This document shows, piece after piece, positions 4,029-32,000 of a DNA stretch of 32,000 nt. Every line of letters begins with the position of its first letter. Position 1 is the first letter of the stretch. The notes beneath the pieces are model-generated. The model saw nothing but the letters and a program-made list of their open reading frames with translations. It had not been told where the DNA came from and searched no databases. This stretch comes from an uncultured Opitutales bacterium (GTDB lineage Bacteria > Verrucomicrobiota > Verrucomicrobiia > Opitutales > Intestinicryptomonadaceae), in the NCBI GenBank assembly GCA_934660865.1, contig CAKUIA010000017.1, forward strand, positions 30,303-62,302, in the 5' to 3' direction. Both the position numbers and the translations under genes were made by a program.

Positions 4029-4037
4029 AAGCATTTT

Positions 4038-5081: not shown

Positions 5082-5113
5082 TTTTTTTAACGTAGCTTTT
5101 ATTAAGCGCCAAC

Positions 5114-5141: not shown

Positions 5142-5319
5142 TATAATCCATAAAAACAATTCCTTTTCAAAAGACAGGCTTTTTGAGACACATAACAGCA
5201 TATAAATATCTCATTGATTTATAGTATATTACAAAAATTAAAACTAAAGCCTTGTTTGTCGCACAAGGTATATTATGTCTACTTGCATAACATAGGTTGA
5301 CTTTCTATAAAAGATTTCT

Positions 5320-5970: not shown

Positions 5971-5983
5971 TCTTAAAATTATT

Positions 5984-6319: not shown

Positions 6320-6434
6320 GATTAACAAAATTTTGTTTATGCAATATAATTTTGGCGATATTTCGCCGTGGCGTTTCATCTTAACCCAACAAATCTTCAA
6401 ATATGAAATACACTAAAGACTTAAGTATACGGAT

Positions 6435-6824
6435 ATGAAAAACTATATAAATAAAATTTTGGCACTGGCCCTATTTTTTCTTTTGCATGTCAATGCCTTC
6501 GCAGAAAATATTGAAAACGGCATTTGTGTTTCATACAAGGTTGTACAAGCCCGGGAAATTGAAACAACTTTTTTTAAAGATTCATCAAATGCAAAGCCAA
6601 TGCCGAACGATTTGTATGTAATTGGTTATATCCGCCAAAATATACCTGTAAAATACGATGTGTCGTGCACGTTATATTTTTACAACCCCGGACAACGCGG
6701 CTTAAAGAGAATTGCAAAAATCGGTTGGATTGGCACGGGCAAATTCTTTTTATTGCAACTGGGCAGCAAGGATATTTATAGCAAAGATTTGCAATACGAA
6801 ATAAAAATTGACATGCGAAAATAA
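6435..6824 (+). CDS. hypothetical exported protein (AT-rich islet gene 3)
   Basis: 129-aa ORF with a signal peptide MKNYINKILALALFFLLHVNAFA|EN. No recognisable motif. Confidence 0.5.
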   Translation: MKNYINKILALALFFLLHVNAFAENIENGICVSYKVVQAREIETTFFKDSSNAKPMPNDLYVIGYIRQNIPVKYDVSCTLYFYNPGQRGLKRIAKIGWIGTGKFFLLQLGSKDIYSKDLQYEIKIDMRK

Positions 6825-6884
6825 TTGGACAAGGCGATTTTTTTGAAAGACTGTTTGCAATACTAAGCATAACATAAAATAGCC

Positions 6885-7265
6885 ATGAAATTTATAAAAT
6901 ATATAACAGTTATTTTGCTGATATTGGTTTTTATGTTATGCGCAATTAACCATTTGGTATTTAAAATAGGATACGGTATTCCGGGCGGTGAAATAGATTT
7001 TGTAGGGCTTACAAAAATCGACGCTATAAAAAAGCTTCAGGAAAAGAAAATTGGAGATTTAATATTAATATTTGTAGGCGGCTATAAAGGAAGAAGTTAT
7101 AAAAATATAAACGAAGTTGAAAAAGACCCGTATATAATACAGTCGAAGATTTTGGGTGTAAACTGTAAACAAGCGGGCAATGTCAATTATATGCAAATTC
7201 TTTTTTTTGATGAAACAGAACGCGTATATAAACAAAAAATTAGCTATTCATTTGACGGGCCGTAG
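6885..7265 (+). CDS. hypothetical membrane-anchored protein (AT-rich islet gene 4)
   Basis: 126-aa ORF with one N-terminal hydrophobic helix (ITVILLILVFMLCAI). No recognisable motif. Confidence 0.5.
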   Translation: MKFIKYITVILLILVFMLCAINHLVFKIGYGIPGGEIDFVGLTKIDAIKKLQEKKIGDLILIFVGGYKGRSYKNINEVEKDPYIIQSKILGVNCKQAGNVNYMQILFFDETERVYKQKISYSFDGP

Positions 7266-7497
7266 CTTGCATTTTTAATATACTTACAATTAAAATGTTA
7301 TGAAAACAAAAAAATTAGATATGCAGTTTCATATGGCAATTCGCTGTTTTCTAGATTAAACTTTTCGCGGCCGTTTGGTTTTGTGTTGTTAACAGATAAA
7401 TGGCTTGTGTTCGGGCGGCGTATTTTACGCAAACGCAACAAAAGTTCTCTGTATTTTGATAAAGCCCTACCCTTATTTTTTCGGGTGTTTTGTGGGG

Positions 7498-9030
7498 TTA
7501 GTGTTTGTGGAGTTTTTGCTTTATTTGTTGCATGAGGGCGGATTTTTCGGATTTGGTTAGGCCGAATGCAAATATTGCAAACAAAACCAAAATTTCGGTA
7601 GATGCCGTATCGAACACGAATTTTGCAAAAGCAAAATCTATGCGCACAAAGTTTATCAAAATTTCCGAAAATGCCGTTGCAAACGCGCAAACGGCAAAAA
7701 TTCTGGCGGCAACCTCGGTTATGTAGGCCGATATGCTTATGTTATACGCCTTTTTTGCCATAACAATTCTTGAAAGCGCAACAAGCGATATCATTGCCAC
7801 CAAAACAAAATATACATAACTTGGGCTAAAGCCGCATTTTAGGAATACATACGAAATCGGAATGTTTAAGCTATTGATTATAAACAGGATAATTTCGTAG
7901 GTCTTAATGTTGCCCTCCGCAAACAAGCCTATTGCAAACGGCCACGAAACCGTGTCTATTATTATCGAAATCGCCAGCAAAACCACAAACGAATTTGTGT
8001 AGGCCGGATACTCACCAAGCCATAAGTACAGGAAATAATCGGCCCTTGCAATTATGGGGAAAGCCAATGTGGCCATCAAAAAAAACGAGAATTTGGAGCT
8101 TAAAAAAACGGTTTTTTGCATTGCGGGCAAATTTTTGTCGGCATACAGTTTTGTTATTTGCGGCTGGGCCGACACTAAAAAGGTATTTACAAAGCTTGCA
8201 AGCGTAGATGATATTTGAACCGAAATGCCCCTTGCCGCGTTTACCGCATTGCCGAAAAACAGGTTCAGCATTATGTTAAGCCCCTGGTCTCTGATAATCG
8301 ATGCGCCGTTGCCCAAAAATGCCCAGCCGGTGAAAATTCCCATATTTTTCAATATGCCGAAATCTACCTCAAAACGCTGTTTGTATTGCCCGAACTTAAA
8401 TTTTACAAATACCGAGCACAAAGCCAAAACCGCGACTATGACAAGGGTATTTAGCGTTGCAAACAGCGGCAGTTTGTCGAAGTCCGCAAACAGCAGGCAG
8501 ACTGCCACAAGCAGCTTGCAAAGGGCTTCGAACACCCCTTTAAAGGCGTAAAACGACATTTTTTCGTAGGCTATTATTATTGCGTCGAAAGGAACGTATA
8601 ACATTCGCAACGCAAAGCTTATGCAGGCGCAAAGCAGCACATAAATTGCGGTTTCAACCCTGTCGTGGGCAATAACCATTTTGTTGCATATAAACCAATA
8701 GCCGCCCGCAAAGGCCAAAATGCACAAAATTGCACCCAAAAAGGCCTGCATAAACAATGCGGTAGAAAACAGTTTTTGGATTTTTGCGACGTTGTTTTTG
8801 CCCAATTCGTAGGTGATAAATCTGCTAATCGAAACGGGTATTGCCCCCGTAACAATTTCGAACATTGCAACAACGCCGTATACTACATTGTATATGCCGA
8901 AATCCTCTACACCAAGCTGTTTAAGAACAACCCTTGTAGAGAAAAACCCGACAAAAACGCAAAATATTTGCCTTAAAAACAAATATAAAGTGTTTTTTAA
9001 AAGCCTTTTCTTCGACGCAACGTAAGCCAT
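7498..9030 (-). CDS. wzx: Wzx-type oligosaccharide flippase (MOP/polysaccharide biosynthesis protein family)
   Basis: ~510-aa multi-pass membrane ORF. The N-terminus LKNTLYLFLRQIFCVFVGFFSTRVVLKQLGVEDFGIYNVV is typical of the Wzx/RfbX family. The track start at 9036 is TTG, so I prefer the ATG at 9030 (MAYVASKK...). Confidence 0.8.
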   Translation of the reverse strand: MAYVASKKRLLKNTLYLFLRQIFCVFVGFFSTRVVLKQLGVEDFGIYNVVYGVVAMFEIVTGAIPVSISRFITYELGKNNVAKIQKLFSTALFMQAFLGAILCILAFAGGYWFICNKMVIAHDRVETAIYVLLCACISFALRMLYVPFDAIIIAYEKMSFYAFKGVFEALCKLLVAVCLLFADFDKLPLFATLNTLVIVAVLALCSVFVKFKFGQYKQRFEVDFGILKNMGIFTGWAFLGNGASIIRDQGLNIMLNLFFGNAVNAARGISVQISSTLASFVNTFLVSAQPQITKLYADKNLPAMQKTVFLSSKFSFFLMATLAFPIIARADYFLYLWLGEYPAYTNSFVVLLAISIIIDTVSWPFAIGLFAEGNIKTYEIILFIINSLNIPISYVFLKCGFSPSYVYFVLVAMISLVALSRIVMAKKAYNISISAYITEVAARIFAVCAFATAFSEILINFVRIDFAFAKFVFDTASTEILVLFAIFAFGLTKSEKSALMQQIKQKLHKH

Positions 9031-14102: not shown

Positions 14103-14990
14103 TTATTGCAAAATTTCGCCGCAAACATCGCCTACATGCGCGTAATATTCAATGTTGTTTAGGCTGCATTCCAAAAGTTTTGGCTTAAATTCAACAAAGC
14201 CTTTTTGGAAAACGCAAACTACGCAGGAGCCGCCGAAAAGGAATTTGCCCATTTGGGCTGCGGCCTTAACGTTTGCGCCAATTTCGTCGAAATTTATTAT
14301 GCCGCCTACATTTGTAGCCCCTATTTGCACAACGGCGCAATAGGCCCCGCTTTTGTGGCGCAAAATGTTTACAACCCTCTCGTTTTGCAGCAGATAGTTT
14401 AAGCCCCTGCAAAGCGCTATCGGGCTAACCGAATTTAAGTGCCCTTTTATGCGTTTTCTAGCCTCTATTGTTCCCGAAATCGGGTAGTGAAACCTGTGGT
14501 AGTCTACTGGGCTTAGCCTTGAAATAAGAACCGAGCCTCCATCGAAAAGCTTGGCACATTCGGCGCAGCCCAAAAGGGTTGCAATGTCCAGCTTTTGCCC
14601 TTTTGCGTAAAAAAAATAGTTTTCGCCTATATTTTGCGCCGCTAAATTGCGCGAATCGGCGGGGAAAAATACGCAATTTTCTCCGCCTTTGGCGGTTCTT
14701 GCCTCGGGCAAAAGCTCCCTTGCAAAAAAGTCGTTAAAATTGGCAAAGTTTTTTTGGGGGCAGTCGTCTAAATTTATGGAGTGGGCCTTTGCAAATTTAG
14801 GCCCCGCGTTTTTGCTTATTTTTGAATTTGCCCAAACCCCGAAAATTTTTGAAAAAACCTTCCTTTTAACAAGCGCCCATAAAGCCAGTTTGCCGACGGC
14901 ATTTGAATAGAGGAATTTCAGGAAAAACTCGGCGGGAACTTCCTCGTTTTCGTATTTATTTGTGTGGGAATTGAAAATTTTTATCGCCAT
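14103..14990 (-). CDS. psd: phosphatidylserine decarboxylase proenzyme
   Basis: It has SPVDYHRFHYPISG and the self-cleavage motif FLFGGS (the G-S site generates the pyruvoyl group). Start chosen at the ATG at 14990 (MAIKIFNSH...), which overlaps the recD2 stop as ATGGCGATAA. The 28-codon upstream extension lies inside recD2. Confidence 0.85.
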   Translation of the reverse strand: MAIKIFNSHTNKYENEEVPAEFFLKFLYSNAVGKLALWALVKRKVFSKIFGVWANSKISKNAGPKFAKAHSINLDDCPQKNFANFNDFFARELLPEARTAKGGENCVFFPADSRNLAAQNIGENYFFYAKGQKLDIATLLGCAECAKLFDGGSVLISRLSPVDYHRFHYPISGTIEARKRIKGHLNSVSPIALCRGLNYLLQNERVVNILRHKSGAYCAVVQIGATNVGGIINFDEIGANVKAAAQMGKFLFGGSCVVCVFQKGFVEFKPKLLECSLNNIEYYAHVGDVCGEILQ

Positions 14991-17161
14991 TGGGTGTCCT
15001 GGTAAGATAGCAGCCTTTGTTTTAGCCCCGTATCGCGCTTTAGCGATTTGTCGTTGGCTATGGCCATTTGCCATGCGTATGGTTCGCCGATAATAAACGC
15101 CTTTTTCTTTGCTCTTGTCAATGCAGTATACAATAAATTGCGCTGCAAAAGCATAAAGTGGCTTTTCATTAAAATCAAAACTATCACGGGAAATTCGCTG
15201 CCCTGCGACTTGTGCACGCTAACAGCATACGCCAGGCGCAAGTCGAAGGCGTCGGTTTTCGTAAATTCGGCGGTTTTGCCCTGGAAATCCACGTCCAACA
15301 CATCGTCGGAAATGCCGCTTAAAATGCCCATATCGCCGTTATAGACGTCAAGCAGATAGTTGTTTTTTGTCTGTATAAGCTTGTCGCCCTTTTTGAACAA
15401 AGTTGCCCCGATACGCGTACTTTGGGTATTTTTGTTTAAACGCTGCTGCAAAGTGTCGTTTAAAGCCCCAATGCCGGCCTGCCCCTTGTGCATGGGCAGC
15501 AAAAATTGCACGTCGTTAACGATGTCTATTTCGGGCATGCTTTTTGGGATTTCGTTTTCGAGCAGGTACAATGCGGTTTTTACGGCATTTTCGGGGCTGT
15601 CTACCGCAAAAAATTCAACCTGTCTAAAGCAGCTTATGTGCGCAGAGGCCCTATATTGCGAAAGCGTGTTTTTGCCTTCAAGTATGTCGTGGGCAATGTC
15701 TACAATGTCGGAATTTTCGCTTTGCCTGAAAATTCTTTTTAAAACAACGGTCTTAAAAATTCCGCTTTCTATAATGTCCTTTAAAACATTGCCCGCCCCC
15801 ACGCTTGGCAGCTGGTCTATGTCGCCTACAAGCAAAAGGTGCGCGCTTTCTTTTAGGGCTTTAAAGAGGGCGTTTGCCAGCTTTTCGTCCAGCATTGATG
15901 ATTCGTCTACAATCACAAAATCGGCCTCGAGCTTTTTGTCGCGCCCGAAAGTAAAGCCTCCCGTTTGCGGGTTATACGCCAATATTCTGTGAATTGTCTG
16001 CGCCGGCATATTGCAGCTTTGCGCCATTCTTTGCGCAGCCCTGCCCGTGGGAGCCGCCAAAATCACCCTTACTTTTTTTGCGTTTAAAATTGCAGTTATT
16101 GCCCTTAGCACCGTCGTTTTGCCGGTGCCCGGGCCGCCCGTTATAACGCAAACCTTGTTTTTAATGGAATTTTTTACCGCCGAAATCTGTTCGGGCGACA
16201 AGTTGGTGCCGAACTTTTGCTGCGCCCATAGCACCGCCTTTTCCACCGCAATTTTAGGCAGGCCGGAAGGCTCTTTGTTTATCGCGTTAAGGCTTTCGGC
16301 AATGCGCCTTTCGCATATCGCATTGGCCTTTAATTGAACAAAATGCGAATTTACAAGAACAAGCTCGCCAATATTTATCATTTCAAGCAGGCGCTCTTTG
16401 CACAAGGCGGCGTCTACCGCCAAATTTTGCGAGGCGGTTTCTATCAAAATGTCTATGTCGGCCATAGTATGGCCCAGTTGTTCGAATTCGCTTAGCGTAA
16501 AGCTTAGCCCCGCCTTTACCCTAAATACCGACTCGTTTGCAATGCCCGAATTAAGGGCAATTTGGTCGGCCGTTTTAAATCCTATGCCGCCTATTTCCAT
16601 AGCCAGCTTATACGGGTTTTCGGCTATAACATTAAGGGCTTTTTCGCCGTACTTTTTAACTATGTCGGCGCAGTGTTTTATGCCGACACCGTAGGTTCTA
16701 AGCTTCATTACAACATCGCGCAAATTGCGCTGTGCGTCCCACGATTTTTTTATTTCCCGTACGCGCTTTTCGCCAATGCCTGCAACCTCCCTTAGGCGCG
16801 CGGAATCTTCGTCGATAATTTTCAGCGTATTTTCGCCGAATCGGTTTACGATTTTTTCGGCATAGCCCTTGCCGATTCCCTGAATTAGCCCGCTGCCCAA
16901 AAATTTTTTTATGCCGTATAAAGACGACGGCAGCTTGCTTTTAAAGGAAACGGCCTTTAACTGGTCGCCGTAGCTTTTGTGGTGCAGCCAATAGCCCTTA
17001 ACTTCAAGCGTTTCGCCGCATTGTATGGAGGGCAACGTGCCCGTTATTGTAAACGAACTTTTGTCGGAGCTTTTTATTTGGGCCACGCAATAGTTGTTGT
17101 CTTCGTTGTAAAAAAGTATTTTTTCTACAACGCCCTCTACGGTTGACAGCGCGCCGTCCAT
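14981..17161 (-). CDS. recD2: RecD2-type SF1B ATP-dependent DNA helicase
   Basis: It has Walker A ITGGPGTGKTT, Walker B FVIVDESSM, VGDIDQLPSVGAGN, an HhH-like GIGEKRVREI, and the C-terminal AYAVSVHKSQGSEF. Start chosen at the ATG at 17161 (MDGALSTVEGVV...), which shares one base with the HAD stop (TAATG). This gives ~726 aa, typical for RecD2. Confidence 0.85.
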   Translation of the reverse strand: MDGALSTVEGVVEKILFYNEDNNYCVAQIKSSDKSSFTITGTLPSIQCGETLEVKGYWLHHKSYGDQLKAVSFKSKLPSSLYGIKKFLGSGLIQGIGKGYAEKIVNRFGENTLKIIDEDSARLREVAGIGEKRVREIKKSWDAQRNLRDVVMKLRTYGVGIKHCADIVKKYGEKALNVIAENPYKLAMEIGGIGFKTADQIALNSGIANESVFRVKAGLSFTLSEFEQLGHTMADIDILIETASQNLAVDAALCKERLLEMINIGELVLVNSHFVQLKANAICERRIAESLNAINKEPSGLPKIAVEKAVLWAQQKFGTNLSPEQISAVKNSIKNKVCVITGGPGTGKTTVLRAITAILNAKKVRVILAAPTGRAAQRMAQSCNMPAQTIHRILAYNPQTGGFTFGRDKKLEADFVIVDESSMLDEKLANALFKALKESAHLLLVGDIDQLPSVGAGNVLKDIIESGIFKTVVLKRIFRQSENSDIVDIAHDILEGKNTLSQYRASAHISCFRQVEFFAVDSPENAVKTALYLLENEIPKSMPEIDIVNDVQFLLPMHKGQAGIGALNDTLQQRLNKNTQSTRIGATLFKKGDKLIQTKNNYLLDVYNGDMGILSGISDDVLDVDFQGKTAEFTKTDAFDLRLAYAVSVHKSQGSEFPVIVLILMKSHFMLLQRNLLYTALTRAKKKAFIIGEPYAWQMAIANDKSLKRDTGLKQRLLSYQDTQWR

Positions 17162-17844
17162 TACAGCGCCGAACCGAAAAAGCGTTCGGACATTTCGGAA
17201 AAGTCCGAGTAAACGCCGAGCGCGTTTTTGGCTTTCTTTAAAAGCTCCGATTTTGCAACGGTGCCCGTTGCAACCAAAGCGCATTCAATGCCGGCGTTTT
17301 GCGCCGAGTTGTAGTCGTATAGCGAGTCGCCCACAACAAGCGCGTTTTCGGGAGCAAGTTTCATTTTGCCAAGAGCTGCTAACGTAAATTCCCTGTCGGG
17401 CTTGCGGGGCGAATGTAAGGTAGTTCCCGTTACCGCGCAAAAATACGGCAAAATGCTCAATTTTGCCAAAATCTCGCGGGCGGCGTGCTCTTCTTTGTTT
17501 GTAAAAAGCGCAATTTTATACTTTTTTTTGCGCAAAAATTCCAAAAATTCTACCGTGCGCGGCATTAAGGTAAGGCCGTCGAACATAAAGCGGTAGAAAT
17601 TTTCGGTATATATTTCGGCCAAGCGCATTGCGTCTTTTTCGCCGAAAAGCTTACCCATTGTAATAAGTATAGAGCCGCCTACGCTGTTTACCGTATCTTC
17701 GAAATCGGGTGCTTCCAGCCCAAGCTTTCTGGCCGAATACGACGCGCACGAATGAATTGCGTGGAAATTATCCACCAATGTCCCGTCTAAATCGAACAAT
17801 ATGCCTTTAATGTTGCCCTTTTCCACCTTAAGCCGTATCCCCAA
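17161..17844 (-). CDS. HAD-superfamily hydrolase (phosphoglycolate phosphatase-like)
   Basis: Motif I is ILFDLDGTLVDN, motif II is LFTNK, and motif IV is VVGDSLYD. The track start 17844 is TTG, and a GTG at 17826 is an alternative. Confidence 0.8.
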   Translation of the reverse strand: MGIRLKVEKGNIKGILFDLDGTLVDNFHAIHSCASYSARKLGLEAPDFEDTVNSVGGSILITMGKLFGEKDAMRLAEIYTENFYRFMFDGLTLMPRTVEFLEFLRKKKYKIALFTNKEEHAAREILAKLSILPYFCAVTGTTLHSPRKPDREFTLAALGKMKLAPENALVVGDSLYDYNSAQNAGIECALVATGTVAKSELLKKAKNALGVYSDFSEMSERFFGSAL

Positions 17845-20185: not shown

Positions 20186-20674
20186 CTATTCTTTTGCGGA
20201 GGCTTTTTCGGGCAAAATAACCTTCGCTTTTGCCGAAAATTCCACATAGCCGCATACATGCGAATTGCCCGAAATTTCGCTTGTTGTTTTTGTGTCGTAC
20301 AAATTGCTGTAGTACTGCGTGCTTTGCGTTGCGTTTTCGGCGTTTTCGTTGGCGCAGGCCGAGCTTGCATAAAACATTGCAATGCTTGTAAGCATAAGCG
20401 AAAACACGGCGGCCCACTCCAGCGCAACCTGCTTTGGGTTTTCCTTTTTTGCCTTTTCGGGCAAAACCCCCTCTACAGGCAGCGGCGCAAACTTTGGTTT
20501 TTTTCCGTATATTTTGCACGACGCCATATATATTCGGCAATTTTCGTAAAATATGTTGGCAAATTCGGGGTTTTCCCTTATCGCCGACACCAAAAGGCGA
20601 AGCTCCTCGCAGGTAGCTTCGCCGTCTAGGTAAGAGCTTACAATCTCCTGAAACCTGTTTTTAGAAAGCGCCAT
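20186..20674 (-). CDS. anti-sigma factor (single-pass membrane protein)
   Basis: It begins 2 nt after the ECF sigma stop (TAGGAATG). The N-terminus FQEIVSSYLDGEATCEELRLL resembles anti-sigma N-terminal helices. It has one TM helix (ALEWAAVFSLMLTSIAMFYA) and a short ~60-aa extracytoplasmic tail. Confidence 0.6.
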   Translation of the reverse strand: MALSKNRFQEIVSSYLDGEATCEELRLLVSAIRENPEFANIFYENCRIYMASCKIYGKKPKFAPLPVEGVLPEKAKKENPKQVALEWAAVFSLMLTSIAMFYASSACANENAENATQSTQYYSNLYDTKTTSEISGNSHVCGYVEFSAKAKVILPEKASAKE

Positions 20675-20676
20675 TC

Positions 20677-21255
20677 CTATTTTTCGGCGTTAAGCTTTTC
20701 CCTTAAAAAGTCTCTTGCGCGCGACAATCTGCTTTTTACGGTGCCAACCCCTATGTTCAGTTTTTCGGCAATCTCTTCGTACGAAAGGTCGTCTTCGTTC
20801 CTAAGTTTTAAAACCTGGGCGTAAATTTCGGGCATTTGCGCCATTGCCCTGGGCAAAAACTCTTCAAGCTCGTTGGTAATGTTGGCCTCGCTGGGAGTTT
20901 GCATTTCGCATTTAATAACATCGCCAAAGGTTATGCTTGCGCCATCGTCGCCCAAAACGGGCTCTTCAAACGAAACGCTTGCGTGCCTTTTTCTGCGCCA
21001 CCAATACCAGCTTTTATTTTTGGCCAAATTAGTGGCAATGCGGTACAGCCAGGTAGACAAAGCGCAGTCGCCCCTAAAATTCGAGATTGAATTTCGGGCT
21101 TTAATAAAGGTGTCTTGGGCAACTTCCTCGGCGTCCTGCCTGTTGTTTAGTATTTTGTTTGCCTGATTTAACACCATAGCGTAGTTGTCCGAAACAAGCT
21201 TTCCGAAAGCCTTTTCGTCTCCGCAACGCAATTTAGTAAGTACTGTATCTTCCAT
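20677..21255 (-). CDS. ECF-type RNA polymerase sigma-70 family factor
   Basis: Region 2 is DAEEVAQDTFIKARNSISNFRGDCALSTWLYRIATNLAKN. Region 4 HTH is LSYEEIAEKLNIGVGTVKSRLSRARDFLREKL. Confidence 0.9.
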   Translation of the reverse strand: MEDTVLTKLRCGDEKAFGKLVSDNYAMVLNQANKILNNRQDAEEVAQDTFIKARNSISNFRGDCALSTWLYRIATNLAKNKSWYWWRRKRHASVSFEEPVLGDDGASITFGDVIKCEMQTPSEANITNELEEFLPRAMAQMPEIYAQVLKLRNEDDLSYEEIAEKLNIGVGTVKSRLSRARDFLREKLNAEK

Positions 21256-21312: not shown

Positions 21313-21337
21313 GGACAATTTATTTTCGTATTTGTTC
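21313..21337 (-). promoter_or_regulatory. candidate autoregulated ECF-type promoter upstream of the sigma gene
   Basis: The minus strand reads TCGAAC-N17-GTCCAA (GAAC at 21337-21334, GTCC at 21316-21313), about 58 nt upstream of the sigma ATG. It resembles the generic ECF GAAC...(C)GTC architecture. This is pattern only. Confidence 0.25.
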
Positions 21338-21411
21338 GAAATAATTTGCGTTTTCTATTGTAATTAATCTCTCAAATAGTTTAAATTGCTTCGAAATATA
21401 TCGCATGTAGT

Positions 21412-23151
21412 ATGAAATTTTTTGGAAACTCAAAGAAATCAATCGGAAGAAAAGCCGTTTTGTTAAACTGCATAAACGGGCAAATTTCGCAGGCGGACGA
21501 ATTTCCCGCAAAAATAGGCGATTCGGAAAATTGCGCGCTAAAGGCAAACGAAGTGTTCGAAGCCCTGGAGCTTTCCTGCGGGCAATCGGAGGGCTTTACA
21601 TTAGGCAGGTGCTCCGACGACAGCGTTCTTATAAATTCAAAAGTTCCCGAAACCGAAACGGTTGTGGAAAACGGCGAATGTACAATACAGTTTTCAAACG
21701 GCCTGTATATGCTATTTTGCGGCGAAAACGCCCTTAAAAAAGCGCAAAACATAGATTTGTCGCGCTGGTTTTTGTTCGACGCAATAAACGGCCGAATAGA
21801 AGACGAAGTTCCCTTTGTTTCGCTTAAAAACTCGGTTGTAAAGCGCGGGCTAACGGGCGCAGGCTTGGCCATAGCCCCCAAGGGGGCCGATTTGGGCTTT
21901 TTCTATTCGCAGGTATTTAACGAAGGCAGCGCCGATGTAGCTTTAGACGTTGCCCCCGTTTCGTACAACTCGCATGCGATAACCTGCCCCATGTGCTATT
22001 TAAGCTTCGACATAGGCGACGCGCTAAGCATAGCCTCGCACGAAAGCCTTAGGGGCGACACCGTTTTAGGCCCCGACGAAATGCTTAGGTTTTTACCCGT
22101 TTCGTTCAACGAGCACGGCATTGCCCTAGACCCTATGGGGCTGCCCGCCCCCGACATTGCGTGTCCGCACTGCCGCAAAAAACTGCCGTCGGGCTTTTTG
22201 GATTTAGACGCAAAAATATTTTCGATTGTAGGCGCGCCAAGTTCGGGCAAGTCGTATTATTTAAGCGTGCTTATTAAAGAGCTTAAAGACGTTTTGGCCC
22301 AGCGTTTCGGCGTAAGCTTTAAAGACCTAGACCCTAGCGGCAATATGATGCTTACATTGATGAAAAACAAGCTCTTTTCGGCCACAACAAGCACCGACGC
22401 AATACTGGCAAAGACTGCTTTTGAAGGCGCAATGTACGAAAAATACCCGCGCTTCGGCAAAATGGTGGCTTTGCCAAAACCGCTAACCTACTCTATTTCA
22501 AACGAAAAGATTTCCGACAAAGCCCTTGTGTTCTACGACAATGCAGGCGAGCATTTCGAGCCCGGCATAGATTTGGAGGACTCGCCGGGGGCAATGCACG
22601 TTGCAAGCAGCGCCGCAATATTCTTTCTTTTCGACCCGGCCTCGAACAGGGGCTTTAAGGAAAAGCTGCGCGACCACCCCGACCCACAGCTTAAAATCAA
22701 GGGCCGCGTAGACCAGCAAGACACCATTATGTCGGAAATGGAAGTTCGCATTAAGCGAATTTCGGGAATGGAATCGGCCGCAAAAATAAAGAAGCCGCTT
22801 GCCGTTATAATAAACAAATTCGACATTTACAAAGACCTTTTAGACGGGCCTTTGCAAGACTACTATAAAGACGGTGCGCTGGACCTTTCGGCGGTAAAAA
22901 ACAACAGCGATAAGATAAGAAAATTTATGATGGCAACCGAGCCTTCAATAGTGTCTACCGCCGAGTCGCTTTCCGAAAACACAATGTTCTTTGCCGTAAG
23001 CCCGCTTGGGCATACCCCCATAAAGATAGAAAGCGGCGAATGCGCGGGCATGATTGCCCCCGACATAGAAAAGCTAAACCCGATGTATGTGGAAGTTCCC
23101 ACAATTTGGGCGATAAGCCAAACAATAGACGGGCTAATTAAAACCGTATAG
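21412..23151 (+). CDS. P-loop GTPase with N-terminal uncharacterised region and split zinc ribbon
   Basis: 579-aa ORF. It has two CxxC pairs, CPMC (21985-21996) and CPHC (22162-22173). After them come G1/Walker A GAPSSGKS (22231-22254), G3 DNAG (22537-22548), G4 NKFD (22813-22824) and a G5-like FAVSPLG. The first ~190 aa match no family I recognise. Confidence 0.75.
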   Translation: MKFFGNSKKSIGRKAVLLNCINGQISQADEFPAKIGDSENCALKANEVFEALELSCGQSEGFTLGRCSDDSVLINSKVPETETVVENGECTIQFSNGLYMLFCGENALKKAQNIDLSRWFLFDAINGRIEDEVPFVSLKNSVVKRGLTGAGLAIAPKGADLGFFYSQVFNEGSADVALDVAPVSYNSHAITCPMCYLSFDIGDALSIASHESLRGDTVLGPDEMLRFLPVSFNEHGIALDPMGLPAPDIACPHCRKKLPSGFLDLDAKIFSIVGAPSSGKSYYLSVLIKELKDVLAQRFGVSFKDLDPSGNMMLTLMKNKLFSATTSTDAILAKTAFEGAMYEKYPRFGKMVALPKPLTYSISNEKISDKALVFYDNAGEHFEPGIDLEDSPGAMHVASSAAIFFLFDPASNRGFKEKLRDHPDPQLKIKGRVDQQDTIMSEMEVRIKRISGMESAAKIKKPLAVIINKFDIYKDLLDGPLQDYYKDGALDLSAVKNNSDKIRKFMMATEPSIVSTAESLSENTMFFAVSPLGHTPIKIESGECAGMIAPDIEKLNPMYVEVPTIWAISQTIDGLIKTV

Positions 23152-23160
23152 GGCAAAACA

Positions 23161-24465
23161 ATGGCATACGAATTGATTTACACAAGTTTGCCCTCGGGCA
23201 TTATGGCGGGTCGCTCGGGCTTTTGCGTTGCAGCCTACACCGAAAATATGCCCGAAAGGCTGGTTTTAATGGTCGAAAAATTCAGCAATTTCGACCATTG
23301 CGGCATTTCCGAAAAATATTCGCTAAACAAGCTTTGCCATTCCAATATAGACTATTATGTGCTAACGCGTTCGGCCGATTGCGGCAAAGACTATACGGGG
23401 CGCACAAACTTCATTTCGCACCATTTGGTTTTGTCGGCAAACGAAATCGCAAAATATCCGAACCCAGCCGACATTCTTTTGCACTACAACTGGCTAAATT
23501 CCTACACAAAAGCCCCGCAAAAAATAAAGGAGCCGCCCGATTTGTCGAAAATACCGTTCGAAAAGCACGTTCCCTGCAAAACTTGGGGCGAAATTTTTAA
23601 AGACGCAGGCGTTGCGGCTTTCCCCCGCATAAAGGACGATTGCGAAATATACGCTTCAAAGCAGTTCTCCCAAAAAACCATACTAAAGCTTTTTGCCGAA
23701 TCTTTGGCGCTAACGGTAAACGGCAAATCGGCGTGGAGCTACACGTTTACAACGGCTTTGGGCTCAAGCGAGGTTGCGTTGTCGTATAAATGGAAAGTTT
23801 TCGCTAACCGTTCAAAAGATTCGAGAAACCCGAACGCCATAGATTTGGATTTGCAAAAAGCCCCCTCTTTTGCCGAATGCAGGCTAAGCGAATATGCAAG
23901 AAGCGGCGTTTTAACCAAAGCCGAAGCCCTGTCGCTTACCGCCGCAAAACCGAAAAAAGCCAACACCAAATTTACGGTTGTAAACACAAAGCCCGAACGC
24001 ACATTCCAGCCTATATATGTATATTCGGTTGTAATCGCCATATTGTGCTCGCTAATTGTTGTTTTGGCCTTTTCGCTGCTGGGCGGCAACAATGCCGACG
24101 AATACGAAGACTACCCCGAATACGGCGGCGAATCTTTTGCGCAAATAGCAAAAAGGATAGACAACGCCATTGCCCGCAACGACTATTCTTCGGCCTCGGC
24201 AATTTGGTTCGGCTACGAAAACAGGGAAATCAGAAAAGACTACATATCCTTTGTAAATTCGAAAATAAGAAACTCGATAGCCGAAAACTTGCGGGATTTT
24301 GAAAACGCGCTAAATAGTTCCGACACTATAAGCCAAAAACAGGTAGAGAAAATGACAAAAGCGTGCTCAAACGCCGAAAAATACCTCGAAAAGAGCGACT
24401 TTCCCGACAAAAAATCGCTTTTAAAACGCACAAAACGCCTGCTAGAGCAACTTTCGAAAGAATAA
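23161..24465 (+). CDS. single-pass membrane protein with GAP1-N-like (GTPase-associated protein) N-terminal domain
   Basis: 434-aa ORF starting 9 nt after the GTPase stop. The N-terminus MAYELIYTSLPSGIMAGRSGFCVAAYTENMP resembles the (Q/E)L-x-YTS...G-x-x-G-x-(A/S)GF-x-(V/I)-x-A-x-(S/T)-x-x-(M/I)P opening I recall for GTPase-associated protein 1 N-domains. One TM helix lies at ~24013-24087 (IYVYSVVIAILCSLIVVLAFSLLGG), followed by a ~115-aa helical tail. Confidence 0.4.
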   Translation: MAYELIYTSLPSGIMAGRSGFCVAAYTENMPERLVLMVEKFSNFDHCGISEKYSLNKLCHSNIDYYVLTRSADCGKDYTGRTNFISHHLVLSANEIAKYPNPADILLHYNWLNSYTKAPQKIKEPPDLSKIPFEKHVPCKTWGEIFKDAGVAAFPRIKDDCEIYASKQFSQKTILKLFAESLALTVNGKSAWSYTFTTALGSSEVALSYKWKVFANRSKDSRNPNAIDLDLQKAPSFAECRLSEYARSGVLTKAEALSLTAAKPKKANTKFTVVNTKPERTFQPIYVYSVVIAILCSLIVVLAFSLLGGNNADEYEDYPEYGGESFAQIAKRIDNAIARNDYSSASAIWFGYENREIRKDYISFVNSKIRNSIAENLRDFENALNSSDTISQKQVEKMTKACSNAEKYLEKSDFPDKKSLLKRTKRLLEQLSKE

Positions 24466-24468
24466 TTT

Positions 24469-27216
24469 ATGAACTGCCAACTTTTAATAGTAAAAATACA
24501 GTCGCTTTTAAACGGCAAAAGCATACCGAACGAAAGCGAAATAAAAAGCCTGTGCGACGAATACAACGCCGTGCGCAATATGTGCGCCGACAGGCTACAG
24601 CGGTGCGTTGCCCTTATTCGCTCGAACAGGGACTATTTGGCCTTGCAGATTGCCGAAAGCGAACCGCCGGTTTTGGACACAATAAACCTGCTTGAATTTA
24701 AGGGCCTGCCCGAATGGCGCGCGCTGTGCGGCGAATACAACGCCGAATGTGCCCCCGATTTCGACGGATATTACATAGAGCTTTTGCAGTCGCTATACAC
24801 AAAGGACATAGGTCAAAACCACCCTCTTTACAGAGACTACCGCAGGGCAATGCGCAGCCGCAACTACGACGACGCGCTTAAAATAATCAAGACAATTTCG
24901 CGCATAAATTCGAATAACAACGACATTAAAGCCGAATATGTGCGCCTGCTAAAAAGCCGGGTAAACGAAAAGCTGGCCGAAATAAAAACCGCCCTGCAAA
25001 ACAACGACGCAGAGCGAGCCTTAAAGCTGTTCGCCTTTTTGGACGCAAACAGCTCGGAATTCGACACCGACAGCGACAGCTGGCGCGAAGTCTGCCAAAA
25101 AATCGGCGAGCTTAAACTTCAAAACGCAAAGGACGGCGCAAAAGACATTGTGCGCCGCCTAGGCGTGGTAGATGTGGAAAAAGACTACCGCGAGGCAATC
25201 TCGCTTTTCAACGAATTAAAGCTGCTTGTGTCGGAATATCCCGACATAGTTTCGCAAGGCGATTTGGACAAAGCCGAAGCCCTGAAAAACAAAGCCTTTG
25301 TTTTGAAGGACGAACGCGAAAAAACGGAACTTTCCGCCAGGGCCAAAACGGCGGCGCTTTTGGCTTTCGAAAGCGATTCAAAAAAGGGCAAAACCCTTGC
25401 GCAAAGACTGGCAGACTTTACCGAATTGCAAAACAAATACGGCAAATATTTCGACGAAAATACGGCAAAAAAAGTTTCCCAAAAAGTTTCGTCTATAAAG
25501 CACGCCTTAAAGATAAAACGCCTTGCAAAGCTGGCGCTTGCGTGTTGTGCCCTTGCATTTTTGGCCGTTTGCGCCGCGCTTTGGCGCAATAACAGCGTAA
25601 AAAACGGGCGCGTAAATTCGGCAAAGTCCGAAATCTTAAAAATGCAAAATCTGCAAAGCATAGGCGAAATAAAAAATTCGCTTGCGTATTTCGGCAAACA
25701 ATATGCCGAATTTGCTCCTCAATTTGAAAGGGAAATTGCAAACGCCGAAAACACCCTGCAAATGCTCGAAAGCAGAAAGGCGAAGATAGAAAAATCGCTG
25801 GAAAGTTTGGGGAAAATTAAAGCCGACACCATAAATTCGAGCACTTTTAAGGCGGCTAACGCCGAATTTGCGGCTTTGGAAGAAAGCGCGCAAAAGCTTC
25901 CCCCGCTCGACGAAAGCGAAATCTCCGAAAAAATACAGGCCACAAAACGCCGCTTCGGCATTTTAATGGACACCGTAAAAAACTCTTTCGAAAGGGAATT
26001 TTCGGCTGCGGCTAACGATGTAGAAAACTGCCTTTCGGCGGTTTCGAGCGACTACGGCAAAAGCTTCGAAAAATCGGTAGTCGAGTTGGGCGCGAAAGTA
26101 AAAACGCTAAAAGACATTGTTGAAAAATATTCTAGAATAGTGCCTTTGCACCCCCTAAACCAGACAAAATACAACGACTATATTTCGAAATATACCGCAT
26201 TTACCGTAAGGCTGCACGACATTAAAAACGCGGAAAACGCGATAAGCAACGCGCGTTCGCTGGACGAGTTTTATTCGGCCCTAACCCAGTTGTCGGCAAT
26301 AAACCCGCTGCCCGAGCGCTTTGCAAAAAACATAAAAATTGCCCAGTCGCAAAAAGAAAGCCTCCTTTACGGCGACTTGGCCGAAAAAATCGGAAAGAGC
26401 GCCTTTAAATGCGCAGGCAAAGAATTTTCCTTCGCCAAAATAGACCTCCTAAACGAATGGGAACAGCTATTCGACATATACGAATATGCCGATAAAGACG
26501 GCAAAAAAGTGTATACAAGCAAAATCCTTAAGGAAAGAACCAACGAATGGCCCGGCGGCTACGAAATCATACAAACCGGGCGCCAGTTTTCGCGCGACGG
26601 CTCGCTAAGGCACATATTGCGCCGCAAGCTTGTTTCGGGCGCGTACGTTAAGGTAAACGAGCTTCTTGCTGGCAAAACCCCCGCAAAGGAATCGCTATTT
26701 TTGGCAAATTTGGCGCGCAAACGCCCCTCTTTGCCCGAAGCTTTAAACGCAATAGCAAATGCCGACATTAACGGTGCATTTAAAGCCTATCTCGAATACT
26801 CGCTTTTTACCGCCCCGAATACCGACGACATTTCAAGCGGAACCGCATATTCCGAAAGCGCTATGGCGCGCAAACGCCTGGTACTCGAAAAAGCCGCCGA
26901 CCTTGCTCCGCTTTCTTGGCTGTATGCCGACAAGGCCAAAGTAGACGACATTAACTTTGCCCTATATTCGCAAAAATCGCCCGACTACCTAAAGGAGGCA
27001 ACCGAAACAAAAAACCTTGCAAAGACAATGCTCGAAAACCCGAAAATTTTTGTAGGCTATGCCGACGAGCTTTCGGTTGCGCATTTTTGCGGCGAAAACA
27101 GCGGCACAATTTTCGGGATTTCGGCCGCAAACGGCAAAGTTGTTGTTATATACGAAAACGGCAAGCTGGTGGAAAAACCCGCAATATTTTCGCCCCTGCT
27201 AAAGGCGCATAAATGA
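24469..27216 (+). CDS. large (915 aa) bitopic alpha-helical/coiled-coil membrane protein, unknown function
   Basis: It starts 3 nt after the previous stop. The sequence is rich in K/E/A/L heptad-like stretches. A single central TM helix LAKLALACCALAFLAVCAALW (~25525-25593) splits a ~355-aa N-terminal part from a ~540-aa C-terminal part. I recognised no catalytic motif. Confidence 0.6.
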   Translation: MNCQLLIVKIQSLLNGKSIPNESEIKSLCDEYNAVRNMCADRLQRCVALIRSNRDYLALQIAESEPPVLDTINLLEFKGLPEWRALCGEYNAECAPDFDGYYIELLQSLYTKDIGQNHPLYRDYRRAMRSRNYDDALKIIKTISRINSNNNDIKAEYVRLLKSRVNEKLAEIKTALQNNDAERALKLFAFLDANSSEFDTDSDSWREVCQKIGELKLQNAKDGAKDIVRRLGVVDVEKDYREAISLFNELKLLVSEYPDIVSQGDLDKAEALKNKAFVLKDEREKTELSARAKTAALLAFESDSKKGKTLAQRLADFTELQNKYGKYFDENTAKKVSQKVSSIKHALKIKRLAKLALACCALAFLAVCAALWRNNSVKNGRVNSAKSEILKMQNLQSIGEIKNSLAYFGKQYAEFAPQFEREIANAENTLQMLESRKAKIEKSLESLGKIKADTINSSTFKAANAEFAALEESAQKLPPLDESEISEKIQATKRRFGILMDTVKNSFEREFSAAANDVENCLSAVSSDYGKSFEKSVVELGAKVKTLKDIVEKYSRIVPLHPLNQTKYNDYISKYTAFTVRLHDIKNAENAISNARSLDEFYSALTQLSAINPLPERFAKNIKIAQSQKESLLYGDLAEKIGKSAFKCAGKEFSFAKIDLLNEWEQLFDIYEYADKDGKKVYTSKILKERTNEWPGGYEIIQTGRQFSRDGSLRHILRRKLVSGAYVKVNELLAGKTPAKESLFLANLARKRPSLPEALNAIANADINGAFKAYLEYSLFTAPNTDDISSGTAYSESAMARKRLVLEKAADLAPLSWLYADKAKVDDINFALYSQKSPDYLKEATETKNLAKTMLENPKIFVGYADELSVAHFCGENSGTIFGISAANGKVVVIYENGKLVEKPAIFSPLLKAHK

Positions 27217-27599
27217 AAAAATACAAAGTATATTGGAAAGGCCGCATTGTGGGCGAATACGGCCGCGCCGAAATTTTGGCTGCGCTAAACTACGGCAAGC
27301 TAGGCATGCTGCATTCGGTAGACTTGGGCAACGGCGAAATTGTGCCCATGCAAAGCTTTGTGGATTTGCAGCAAATTGCCGACAGCAAACCGCAAACTTC
27401 GCCTGCAGCGGTTTTGGCCGCCTATTTCCTTAGCGGATTGTGTTTTTTGGGCTGGCCGTTTTTGGCGGTTTTTGCGCCATACTGTTATTGGATATACCGC
27501 AAAGGGCAAAAAAAGGCGGCAGCCTACACTTTGGTTTTGTCGTTGGCGTTTTCGGTATTGGGCGCGCTTTTCTTTTATATAATGGGTAAACTCGGCTAA
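27213..27599 (+). CDS. small 2-TM membrane protein with GYF_2-like (DUF4339-type) N-terminal domain
   Basis: 128-aa ORF whose start overlaps the previous stop (ATGA). The N-terminus YKVYWKGRIVGEYGRAEILAALNYGKLGMLHSVDLGNGEIVPMQSFVDL follows the spacing of GYF_2 domains but lacks their conserved Trp residues. Two hydrophobic helices follow (AAVLAAYFLSGLCFLGWPFLAVF; AAYTLVLSLAFSVLGALFFYIMG). Confidence 0.45.
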   Translation: MKKYKVYWKGRIVGEYGRAEILAALNYGKLGMLHSVDLGNGEIVPMQSFVDLQQIADSKPQTSPAAVLAAYFLSGLCFLGWPFLAVFAPYCYWIYRKGQKKAAAYTLVLSLAFSVLGALFFYIMGKLG

Positions 27600-27703: not shown

Positions 27704-28267
27704 ATGAAAAAACTATACGCAGTTTCCTTAATGTTGGCGGCAATGTTTATGCTTTCGGCTTGCGAATCGTGGGACAACCCCTCGCCTTCCGATACTAACG
27801 CAGCCATGGGTTCGGCCGACAAAAACGGCAACTTGCCCGACGGCTCGTACGGCGCCGACGCCGAAGGCCTTAAAGGTCGCGGCATTAACTCGCTAGACGG
27901 TTTTGACCCCAACAACATCAATCCCGAAGATATCGTTTGCACGGTTTACTTCGGTTTCGACCAGTATGCAATTCCCGCCTCCGAAAGGGGCAAATTGAAG
28001 GAAGCGGCTCAATTCTATTCGGCCAACCCCAATGTTAAAACGGTTTTGGTAGGCCGCACCGACTGGTACGGCACCGAAGAATACAACCTTTTGCTTTCCG
28101 ACAAAAGGGCTTCGGCTGTTAGCGAATATTTGGAAACAAACGGCGTAAACGCCGCCAATATGGAAAGACTTCCCGTAGGCGAAGCAAACGCAACCCCCGA
28201 TGTCGATAAAAATTCGCCCCAGGCAAAGCAAGACCGCAGGGTTGAAATTGTAAAACTTACAAAATAA
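27704..28267 (+). CDS. pal: peptidoglycan-associated lipoprotein (OmpA C-terminal domain family)
   Basis: The lipobox is AAMFMLSA|C. The OmpA_C block is VYFGFDQYAI...VLVGRTDWYGTEEYNLLLSDKRASAVSEYL...QDRRVEIV. Confidence 0.85.
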   Translation: MKKLYAVSLMLAAMFMLSACESWDNPSPSDTNAAMGSADKNGNLPDGSYGADAEGLKGRGINSLDGFDPNNINPEDIVCTVYFGFDQYAIPASERGKLKEAAQFYSANPNVKTVLVGRTDWYGTEEYNLLLSDKRASAVSEYLETNGVNAANMERLPVGEANATPDVDKNSPQAKQDRRVEIVKLTK

Positions 28268-31367: not shown

Positions 31368-31924
31368 TTTTCAATTCACGCGCTCGCGAGGAGCGCGACG
31401 ATACAGCCTATAGTTGGGACGACGCCGCCCAAATAGTTTCAATTCACGCGCTCGCGAGGAGCGCGACCTCAATTTGTTTAAAATCACTGTTTTTATCTTC
31501 GTTTCAATTCACGCGCTCGCGAGGAGCGCGACATATTCTTTTGCCTCATATTCTTTTGGAGCAAAAGTTTCAATTCACGCGCTCGCGAGGAGCGCGACTA
31601 ACGGTATTTATTCACTCTCTTTTCGCAAAAAGTTTCAATTCACGCGCTCGCGAGGAGCGCGACTTGGCAGAAAGTATATAGCCAAGGTTATGTATTTGTT
31701 TCAATTCACGCGCTCGCGAGGAGCGCGACTGCCAGTTTCACGAACACCCTGTACGACTTCGTGTTTCAATTCACGCGCTCGCGAGGAGCGCGACAAACCG
31801 TGTCGGCAATGGAATCGAACTCTTTGGTTTCAATTCACGCGCTCGCGAGGAGCGCGACTCCTTGTACATAGCTTGCTTGCCCTTTGCACCGTGTTTCAAT
31901 TCACGCGCTCGCGAGGAGCGCGAC
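31368..31924 (-). CRISPR. CRISPR array, 9 repeats / 8 spacers, type I-C-like repeat
   Basis: The 32-nt repeat on the plus strand is GTTTCAATTCACGCGCTCGCGAGGAGCGCGAC, starting at 31368, 31436, 31501, 31567, 31632, 31698, 31763, 31827 and 31893. Spacers are 36, 33, 34, 33, 34, 33, 32 and 34 nt. The reverse complement GTCGCGCTCCTCGCGAGCGCGTGAATTGAAAC has a 7-bp GC stem (CGCGCTC/GAGCGCG) and ends in ATTGAAAC, as in type I-C repeats, so transcription is inferred on the minus strand. The leftmost repeat has a variant outer base (T instead of G), consistent with it being the trailer-end repeat. Confidence 0.95.
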
Positions 31925-32000
31925 AGTATGGGATTTTATCTACCTATTTTTATTTGTTTGCAACGGTTTTTTTGCGAAACTTTTTTGTTCTTTTATTTTT
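31925..32000 (-). promoter_or_regulatory. probable CRISPR leader (partial, runs off the window)
   Basis: An AT-rich, T/A-tract-rich 76 nt lies immediately upstream of the first repeat in the inferred minus-strand orientation. It contains no ORF. Confidence 0.45.

Follow-up and report, generated by a model that had tools for sequence, protein, structure and literature searches.

A 32,000-nt stretch of the genome of an uncultured Opitutales bacterium (Verrucomicrobiota; contig CAKUIA010000017.1, positions 30,303 to 62,302; hereafter the window) carries a soluble GTPase gene in one operon with three membrane-protein genes. This operon is the Verrucomicrobiota version of the DO-GTPase/GAP1-N2 system, which Kaur, Burroughs, Iyer & Aravind defined by comparative genomics (eLife 2020; PMC7159879), and its core is vertically inherited across Opitutales, among housekeeping genes. 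New here are the architecture of the verrucomicrobial variant and the evidence that it behaves as a core cellular module rather than as mobile defence. Our preferred reading, to which we give a probability of about 0.45, is that the operon encodes a vertically inherited trans-envelope GTPase signalling switch with a housekeeping role rather than one in mobile immunity. A related reading is already in print.

A conserved four-gene operon

The four genes, taken from the list of open reading frames (ORFs), are:

21412-23151, + strand: gene 1, GTPase, 579 amino acids
23161-24465, + strand: gene 2, GAP1 protein, 434 amino acids
24469-27216, + strand: gene 3, bitopic protein, 915 amino acids
27213-27599, + strand: gene 4, GYF_2-type protein with two transmembrane (TM) helices, 128 amino acids

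Genes 1 and 2 are separated by 9 nt and genes 2 and 3 by 3 nt, and genes 3 and 4 share a 4-nt ATGA overlap. An earlier note on this DNA (the original prediction), made from the letters and the ORF list, had described the operon as a candidate uncharacterised signalling/conflict system. Its positions, strand, gaps and overlap match the ORF list exactly, all the motifs that it quoted are present (CPMC, CPHC, GAPSSGKS, DNAG(E), NKFD and MAYELIYTS...GRSGF at the start of gene 2), and hydropathy places the TM helices of genes 2, 3 and 4 where it had put them. The four ORFs are genuine genes and not chance ORFs, because orthologues stand in the same order in dozens of species and dN/dS is 0.06-0.18.

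A scan that took a single genome for each species detected relatives in 400 genomes, and the best 80 loci were studied. These 80 are all from Opitutales, Opitutia, Puniceicoccales or unclassified Verrucomicrobiota, from gut, rumen, freshwater, termite and marine habitats, and each assembly appears among them once; the core looks single-copy. The original prediction had asked whether the four genes travel together. Across the 80 loci, tblastn and ORF mapping recover the order gene 1-gene 2-gene 3 in nearly every locus with enough flank, and the order is kept in dozens of Opitutales species and in Chthoniobacteraceae, where the core consists of an FHA-GTPase, a GAP1-N2 protein, a gene 3 homologue and a GYF/DUF4190 protein. 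Prosthecobacter keeps genes 1-3 and not gene 4. The gene 3 hidden Markov model (HMM) matches the Chthoniobacteraceae and Prosthecobacter homologues at E 1e-104 and 3e-84, respectively. Cultured species of Chthoniobacter and Prosthecobacter exist; the carriers found here are metagenome-assembled genomes (MAGs). Between close relatives there is no accessory variation in genes 3 and 4, whose families and order stay unchanged throughout Opitutales and Chthoniobacteraceae.

Identity drops with taxonomic distance for all genes together, ranging across loci over 41-65% for the GTPase, 25-50% for GAP1, 22-46% for gene 3 and 24-37% for gene 4. The closest relatives are two gut Opitutales MAGs, L001 and L002, of the same species as the window, with gene 1 about 94% identical; only these two share the flanks of the operon. 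Elsewhere the flanking genes vary by lineage and are of housekeeping type (rplU/rpmA, purL, NAD kinase, RecD2, phosphatidylserine decarboxylase), those of a gut relative including ribosomal proteins L21/L27, purL and NAD kinase. Two carriers found by the scan, Intestinicryptomonas porci and Puniceicoccaceae Marseille-Q1082, are cultured isolates, and one cultured gut isolate has the operon on a 1.77-Mb contig; the function is therefore directly testable.

Selection on the operon is purifying. Against L001/L002, the dN/dS values are 0.065 (gene 1), 0.14-0.16 (gene 2), 0.14 (gene 3) and 0.18 (gene 4), within the range of neighbouring genes, and positive selection is rejected at the level of whole genes, all values lying well below 1 in this comparison with two close sequences. 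Searches of viral contigs, phage records and plasmids returned no relatives of the operon. PADLOC-DB 2.0 gave no significant match to the four proteins (best, mad8 at E 0.025 and AbiTi at E 0.0085, both short and partial), and NCBIfam nothing significant. No nuclease, protease, NADase or kinase domain was found in any of the four by Pfam, PADLOC or NCBIfam, as the original prediction had maintained.

Some more distant loci depart from this pattern around the same core. In a marine Opitutae-like lineage (L081 7622-12492, L082 5659-8183 and L085 10196-14840), what comes after the GTPase-GAP1-gene 3 core is a pair of GYF_2 genes (an RDD domain is present in one), a MotA/ExbB-family gene and trypsin-like genes, and L085 has two GAP1-N2 genes. 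The MotA/ExbB and trypsin-like partners are absent from the window and from all 80 Opitutales loci. One freshwater locus (L042 9815-12313) has an insert of about 2.5 kb between the GTPase and GAP1 genes, with its sigma gene 7 kb away.

The GTPase

Gene 1 encodes three recognizable parts:

21445-21735, + strand: degenerate FHA-type beta-sandwich, residues 12-108 (AlphaFold2 pLDDT 77-92)
21985-22173, + strand: Cys4 zinc site (CPxC ... CPHC), residues 192-254 (conservation)
22195-23148, + strand: large G domain, residues 262-579, about 318 amino acids (motifs, conservation)

The product is a DO-GTPase2-type TRAFAC GTPase. Precomputed annotation places PF19993 (DO-GTPase2) on many of its orthologues and on more distant relatives; the window copy itself scores 21.3 bits against this Pfam family, under the cut-off of 27. 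Its homologues number more than 1300. G1 is GAPSSGKS (274-281), G3 or Walker B is DNAGE (376-380) and G4 is NKFD (468-471), with T335 as candidate G2 and SPLGH (530-534) as candidate G5. Among 76 orthologues, GAPSxGKS, K334-T335, FYDNAGEHFEPG, K469/D471 and G533-H534 are at least 95% conserved and DNAGE is invariant, so that the G1, G3 and G4 elements named in the original prediction are kept among homologues. Its assignment of NKFD as G4 is borne out at K469 and D471, which are invariant, and not at the Asn, which is clade-specific, most orthologues having GKxD.

The AlphaFold2 model of gene 1 (mean pLDDT 72) places the G domain, in Foldseek, beside the TRAFAC GTPases eRF3/EF1A, atlastin-3, GBP1 and G-alpha. 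A profile search of gene 1 against PDB sequences gave P-loop or coiled-coil noise and no sequence relative among the chains, and Pfam gave no dynamin, GBP or atlastin match.

The original prediction caught the two CxxC pairs and the G motifs and overlooked the N-terminal FHA-type domain. A profile of 24 orthologues matches the KIF13B FHA domain in the PDB at E 0.008, as well as the FHA domains of KIF1B, EssC and afadin, and the Chthoniobacter and Prosthecobacter relatives of the GTPase carry PF00498/PF16697 and the NCBI name 'FHA domain-containing protein'. The N-terminus of the window copy has no Pfam match. In the 76 sequences of the gene 1 family, the phosphothreonine-binding Arg and Ser of FHA domains are replaced; C20 is the sole residue of the region that is at least 95% conserved, and N75 is conserved within a 16-sequence subset only. 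Because the phosphothreonine-binding Arg and Ser are not conserved, we infer that this is a degenerate FHA domain used as an adaptor.

The cysteine pairs, CPMC at 192-195 and CPHC at 251-254, enclose a segment of about 55 residues that ranks among the best-conserved stretches of the gene 1 product. At least 95% conserved in the 76 sequences are C192, P193, C195, W196, F199, D203, H210, R214, D216, R226, F227, C251, P252, H253 and C254. With four cysteines, one zinc site is predicted and not two; AlphaFold2 confidence in this segment is low (pLDDT 31-48). A GYF-like domain akin to gene 4 was considered at residues 115-170 and rejected (hhalign probability 0.1%, no Pfam match).

The three membrane proteins

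Gene 2 encodes the GAP1 protein. Its residues 1-129 match Pfam GAP1-N2 (PF20013) at E 2.9e-18, and the domain is found in 25 of 25 orthologues. Together with the DO-GTPase2 matches in many gene 1 orthologues, this confirms the GTPase plus GAP1 gene dyad that the original prediction had named after computational surveys. Its further expectations divide: GAP1-N2 is present and GYF_2 is found in 8 of 20 gene 4 orthologues, but GAP1-C has no Pfam match in the window gene 2 or in any of the 25 orthologues. GAP1-M (PF20014) is matched by two longer orthologues only (E 2.1e-05 and 0.018, at their residues 150-243) and has no Pfam match in the window copy; the orthologues' stretch is expected to correspond to the conserved region at about 140-235 of the window protein (W142, W192, W211). 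After this M-like region, in place of GAP1-C, stand a TM helix and a helical tail:

24028-24084, + strand: TM helix of gene 2, residues 290-308 (hydropathy)

The tail, residues 309-434, is acidic and helical and is predicted to be periplasmic from hydropathy and the positive-inside rule; the GAP1-N2 domain is placed in the cytoplasm because its partner is a GTPase. A gene 2 profile against PDB sequences gave P-loop or coiled-coil noise and no relative. That the tail might be a paralogue of the region of gene 3 beyond its TM helix was considered and not accepted (hhalign probability 28%).

Gene 3 belongs to a large unnamed family to which no solved structure could be related by sequence or by fold. 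A profile search against 1.84 billion representatives found 281 cluster representatives at E<1e-30, mostly full-length. The protein has no match in Pfam, NCBIfam or PADLOC; its profile gives only P-loop or coiled-coil noise against PDB sequences, and Foldseek with its AlphaFold2 model (mean pLDDT 85, pTM 0.40) gives only TPR-like noise in the PDB, at TM-scores <0.1. The N-terminal half, predicted to be cytoplasmic, is helical, with a conserved motif, HPLYRDYRRAMR, at residues 118-129, and is followed by a single TM helix:

25522-25578, + strand: TM helix of gene 3, residues 352-370 (hydropathy)

Beyond it, the model has a helical bundle, predicted to be periplasmic, and then a C-terminal alpha/beta domain (about 655-915). 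The five versus three Lys/Arg that flank the helix suggest an N-in orientation with about 545 residues outside the membrane. Gene 3 always follows GAP1 in related loci, and this is the first description of the family, which comprises hundreds of clusters, as a core partner of GAP1-N2.

Two loci hold a full-length gene 3 homologue (HMM E 4e-136) and no GTPase or GAP1 gene (L083 6497-9661 and L084 6408-9572). There it lies between PBP_like_2 and methyltransferase genes, with RecA just upstream and a gene for a GYF_2+CD225 protein 3 kb upstream. These solitary homologues mean that the gene 3 family can exist without the GTPase context.

Gene 4 has a divergent GYF_2-type N-terminal domain (residues about 4-55) and, by hydropathy, TM helices at 66-84 and 107-125. 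Eight of its 20 orthologues match GYF_2 (PF14237), the best at E 8.9e-08. The window copy is under the Pfam threshold: where the W-K-G...G-P-[FY] signature has SGPF, it has GEYG, in a collinear alignment with its orthologues. An HMM of the orthologues matches the GYF/DUF4190 protein of Chthoniobacteraceae at 3e-16, and a gene of this type stands immediately after gene 3 in Chthoniobacteraceae and in distant loci of freshwater and marine origin. No similarity to SLATT or to known pore formers was found. Because the loop between its helices is rich in Lys and Arg, the topology of gene 4 is ambiguous.

A proline-rich motif of gene 3, LPxPPPFD (residues about 92-100; within 24469-24800), reads APDF in the clade of the window, and in the same clade the GYF signature SGPF of gene 4 (residues about 8-18; 27213-27280) reads GEYG. 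The joint degeneration of GPF and LPxPPPFD gives a Mann-Whitney p of 0.03 and a Fisher p of 0.21, with no phylogenetic correction. This may reflect co-variation of a GYF domain with its ligand, and is a weak lead.

Linkage to transcription modules

Upstream of the operon, on the opposite strand, lie a sigma factor gene, a candidate anti-sigma gene and a candidate promoter of the extracytoplasmic function (ECF) type:

20677-21255, - strand: ECF-type sigma-70 factor, 192 amino acids (Pfam: Sigma70_r4_2 5e-17, Sigma70_r2 1.4e-13, Sigma70_ECF 3e-07)
20186-20674, - strand: candidate anti-sigma, 162 amino acids, with a TM helix at 83-101 and a periplasmic tail of about 60 residues (position, topology)
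21313-21338, - strand: candidate ECF-type promoter, CGAAC-N17-GTCC, ending 57 nt upstream of the sigma start codon and facing the sigma gene

The candidate anti-sigma gene shares the strand of the sigma gene and follows it after 2 nt, and its product has a cytoplasmic N-terminal domain by hydropathy and the positive-inside rule; with no Pfam match, it is assigned from position and topology alone. The original prediction had listed this pair as an upstream neighbour. The position is correct, and the description undersells the linkage: a divergent sigma gene, in most cases accompanied by the anti-sigma gene, stands directly upstream of gene 1 in 58 of the 80 loci, at identities mostly of 41-63% (35-96% overall) and, in most of the 58, at an intergenic distance of 33-490 nt. 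Most loci of the gut clade keep the candidate anti-sigma gene in synteny with both the sigma gene and the operon. A divergent ECF sigma/anti-sigma pair is physically linked to the core in two large clades of Opitutales.

The motif G[AG]AAC-N16-17-[CT]GTC occurs on the sigma strand in 28 of 61 sigma/GTPase intergenic regions, against a shuffle expectation with a mean of 3.8 and a maximum of 9 in 300, and most of the 28 regions that carry it have it at a distance of 36-105 nt upstream of the sigma gene. On the + strand of the window, no ECF-type motif was found upstream of any operon gene. Since the motif is on the sigma strand only, the sigma factor is probably autoregulated and the operon is not visibly in its regulon; there is no sign that the ECF sigma drives the operon, and we reject this possibility. 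A good match to the ECF-type consensus at 25452-25478 on the - strand (GAAACTTTTTTTGCCGTATTTTCGTCG), antisense within gene 3, is probably due to chance, because there are 15 loose matches across the window.

Other lineages have other regulators at the locus. A Chthoniobacteraceae locus (L087 18285-21279) has the four-gene core followed by a BlaI/BlaR1-type pair (Penicillinase_R and Peptidase_M56), and a Prosthecobacter locus (L088 8046-8591) has a divergent Rrf2 regulator at the position of the Opitutales ECF sigma. As the ECF pair, BlaI/BlaR1 and Rrf2 alternate, the recurrent neighbour is a transcription module rather than one particular regulator.

Comparison with known systems

GAP1-N2 systems were described as a zinc-ribbon DO-GTPase with a downstream GAP1 protein of N, M and C domains, an FNIII-repeat protein, variable lineage-specific components and frequent TM segments (PMC7159879). 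Their GTPases usually have two N-terminal zinc ribbons, and a Glu after DxxG (Walker B) is a DO-GTPase hallmark; planctomycete versions have a TM-rich partner with GYF, and these systems were noted to include pore-forming effectors with two TM helices (SLATT) (PMC7159879). The same study inferred DO-GTPase dimers and GAP1-N2 complexes that resemble structures of the cytoskeleton, and classed the family among the conflict or immune systems of multicellular prokaryotes (PMC7159879). One later paper mentions that DO-GTPases are predicted to act in membrane-related stress. The original prediction had called the system uncharacterised, and this stands: among the papers searched, only the 2020 computational survey treats the family, and no experimental study of DO-GTPase/GAP1-N2 systems was found.

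The present operon shares with these systems a TRAFAC GTPase with the Walker B Glu and an N-terminal zinc element, a GAP1-N2 gene immediately downstream whose product has a C-terminal TM segment, other TM components, and a putative GYF plus TM partner as in planctomycetes; Verrucomicrobia are among the carriers listed (PMC7159879). Unlike them, it lacks GAP1-C and the FNIII-repeat component, FNIII repeats having no Pfam match in the four proteins or their orthologues; beside this absence, we note that the gene 3 model is helical with an alpha/beta domain. It has one Cys4 site rather than two zinc ribbons and a single GYF-type domain rather than a pair. It adds an FHA-type domain, a bitopic third protein of about 900-1050 amino acids and the ECF linkage, none of which is in the text or supplement of PMC7159879, where sigma factors, FHA, MotA/ExbB and Opitutales all go unmentioned. 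Its components are also constant and vertically inherited, with no variation between close relatives.

The regulatory pair resembles other pairs of an ECF sigma and a single-pass anti-sigma in having Sigma70 regions 2 and 4, a TM anti-sigma candidate and a self-directed promoter (GAAC-N16-17-GTC). It differs in that no ECF-type promoter faces the operon and that several lineages lack the pair at this locus. We know of no described ECF group that has a GTPase/GAP1 complex as its input. In its N-terminal FHA-type sandwich without phosphothreonine-binding residues, carried by a membrane-working NTPase, gene 1 is like the FHA adaptors of EssC and YscD type; unlike these, the domain is borne by a GTPase and not by a secretion ATPase or ring protein, and there are no secretion genes in the operon neighbourhood.

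Proposed function and alternatives

In the trans-envelope switch that we favour, the proteins of the operon would form one complex acting as a molecular switch. Information on a state of the periplasm or envelope would cross the membrane through the large part of gene 3 that lies outside it and through the GAP1 tail. The cytoplasmic GAP1-N2/M domains would determine either the nucleotide state of the GTPase, probably a dimer when it works, or its recruitment to the membrane. As adaptors between proteins, the FHA, zinc and GYF modules would keep the complex assembled. The output would be regulatory or structural, most plausibly through the neighbouring anti-sigma/sigma pair or in envelope homeostasis, and no toxic effector would be involved. 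If the operon is such a housekeeping envelope switch, it would provide a new GTPase route for passing information across a membrane, and the wider family would have to be re-read.

Several observations weigh against the switch. Every step of this mechanism is inferred, the action of the operon on the anti-sigma purely so. The ECF-type motif is on the GTPase strand in 0 of the 61 intergenic regions, and the sigma pair is absent beside the operon in marine and termite Puniceicoccales, Chthoniobacteraceae and Prosthecobacter. The positive-inside rule puts the GYF domain of gene 4 outside the cell, contrary to a role as a cytoplasmic adaptor. Genes 2-4 evolve 2-3 times faster than the GTPase, which fits an arms race too, and the sole group to have studied the family defined it as a conflict system (PMC7159879).

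An anti-phage or conflict system is the first alternative to be weighed, and we regard it as unlikely. An invader would be sensed at the envelope by the GAP1 tail and the external portion of gene 3, the GTPase and GAP1 would set a threshold, and gene 4 or the whole complex would depolarize or permeabilize the membrane in abortive infection. Membership of the DO-GTPase/GAP1-N2 family argues for this, as its members have been read as conflict systems with GYF and TM-rich partners and SLATT (PMC7159879). So do the identities to the closest relative, 79-84% at the amino acid level for genes 2-4 versus 94-99% for most flanking genes, the trypsin-like and MotA/ExbB genes added to related operons of another lineage, and the CRISPR array 3.8 kb away. 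By contrast, five lines of evidence disfavour a conflict role. First, the composition of the operon is constant between relatives. Second, it is retained phylum-wide in differing housekeeping contexts, a cultured gut isolate included, and its flanks in the window are common to the same-species L001 and L002 only. Third, dN/dS is well below 1 for all genes. Fourth, the operon matches no PADLOC model and is absent from the phage, plasmid and viral-contig collections searched. Fifth, gene 4 is unlike SLATT or any known pore former. A four-gene set fixed across whole orders fits poorly with the conflict-system label. Of the 'signalling/conflict' label in the original prediction, the signalling half thus holds better, and the conflict half is weakened by constant composition, vertical inheritance, housekeeping context and absence from mobile-element collections.

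The switch may also be framed more specifically, as a phylum-wide, vertically inherited trans-envelope 'G-protein-coupled' sensor in which gene 3, receptor-like and with its large periplasmic domain, would act through GAP1 on the nucleotide state of the GTPase, and the GTPase would then control the ECF pair (or, in other orders, BlaR/BlaI or Rrf2). In this full form the proposal is doubtful, and we rate it level with the conflict system. If true, transmembrane signalling in bacteria would gain a new principle, and at least this branch of the 'conflict systems' would be housekeeping.

A membrane-remodelling or cytoskeleton-like GTPase machine, following the logic of atlastin, GBP and dynamin, seems to us slightly less probable again. 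Here a G-domain dimer, anchored by long helical membrane proteins, would shape, tether or divide membranes or the envelope. The G domain is large, at about 318 amino acids, and its best target-normalized full-size structural matches are atlastin-3 (TM-score 0.45) and GBP1 (0.42), both dimerization-dependent membrane GTPases; DO-GTPase dimers and cytoskeleton-like GAP1-N2 complexes were inferred by Kaur et al. (PMC7159879). Genes 2 and 3 have long helical or coiled segments on either side of the membrane, and phylum-wide vertical conservation suits a cell-biological role. The likeness to atlastin, GBP and bacterial dynamin-like GTPases (including LeoA-type defence GTPases) extends, beyond the large G domain and these Foldseek scores of 0.42-0.45, to membrane association, here through partner proteins. 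However, translation factors and G-alpha rank equally high in Foldseek and all TM-scores are <0.6, so the fold match is generic to TRAFAC GTPases. Pfam and PADLOC place gene 1 in none of these families and the PDB holds no sequence relative; gene 1 has no TM helix of its own and no stalk or paddle-like elements, and it carries FHA and zinc accessories that those GTPases do not. The linkage to transcription modules (ECF pair, BlaI/R, Rrf2) favours signalling.

That the four ORFs are adjacent by chance or decaying, with no joint function, draws on nothing beyond the missing annotation of genes 3 and 4 and is refuted by the synteny and selection data, that is, by the order and tight spacing kept across orders of the phylum, the purifying selection and the invariant GTPase motifs, which leave it a negligible probability.

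The rest of the window

Two further features lie downstream of the operon, both as the original prediction had placed them, along with the ECF pair upstream:

27704-28267: OmpA-family lipoprotein (OmpA/Pal-like), downstream of the operon
31368-31924: array of clustered regularly interspaced short palindromic repeats (CRISPR), nine 32-nt repeats GTTTCAATTCACGCGCTCGCGAGGAGCGCGAC with 32-36-nt spacers, 3.8 kb downstream of the operon

The array is a true CRISPR array, with an AT-rich flank at 31925-32000, no cas gene within the window and no Rfam match. The OmpA/Pal-like gene is a neighbour at species level only, as the array probably is too; the L001 and L002 loci end before the array, and other flanks are not conserved. 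The original prediction had raised a defence-island setting, and the surroundings do not bear this out: the window is ordinary chromosome and not a defence island. It holds an O-antigen/lipopolysaccharide (LPS) glycosyltransferase cluster and genes for a MatE-like protein, a thiamine pyrophosphate (TPP) enzyme, a low-molecular-weight phosphatase, RecD2, phosphatidylserine decarboxylase, a HAD hydrolase, a xylose-isomerase-like protein and a CN hydrolase. Rfam matched no leader riboswitch or structured RNA anywhere in the window.

The O-antigen/LPS cluster at 42-5081 includes Wzy_C, GT10, GT2, SDR and acyltransferase genes. Within the cluster region, GC content falls to 0.32-0.36 at 5001-8000, versus 0.44-0.48 elsewhere, and the ORFs of this stretch at 5320-5970, 6435-6824 and 6885-7265 have no Pfam match. 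The low-GC stretch may be a horizontally acquired serotype cassette.

As called, the ORFs for RecD2 (14981-17284, - strand) and phosphatidylserine decarboxylase (14103-15074, - strand) overlap by 94 nt (14981-15074), and the true start of the decarboxylase is probably further downstream.

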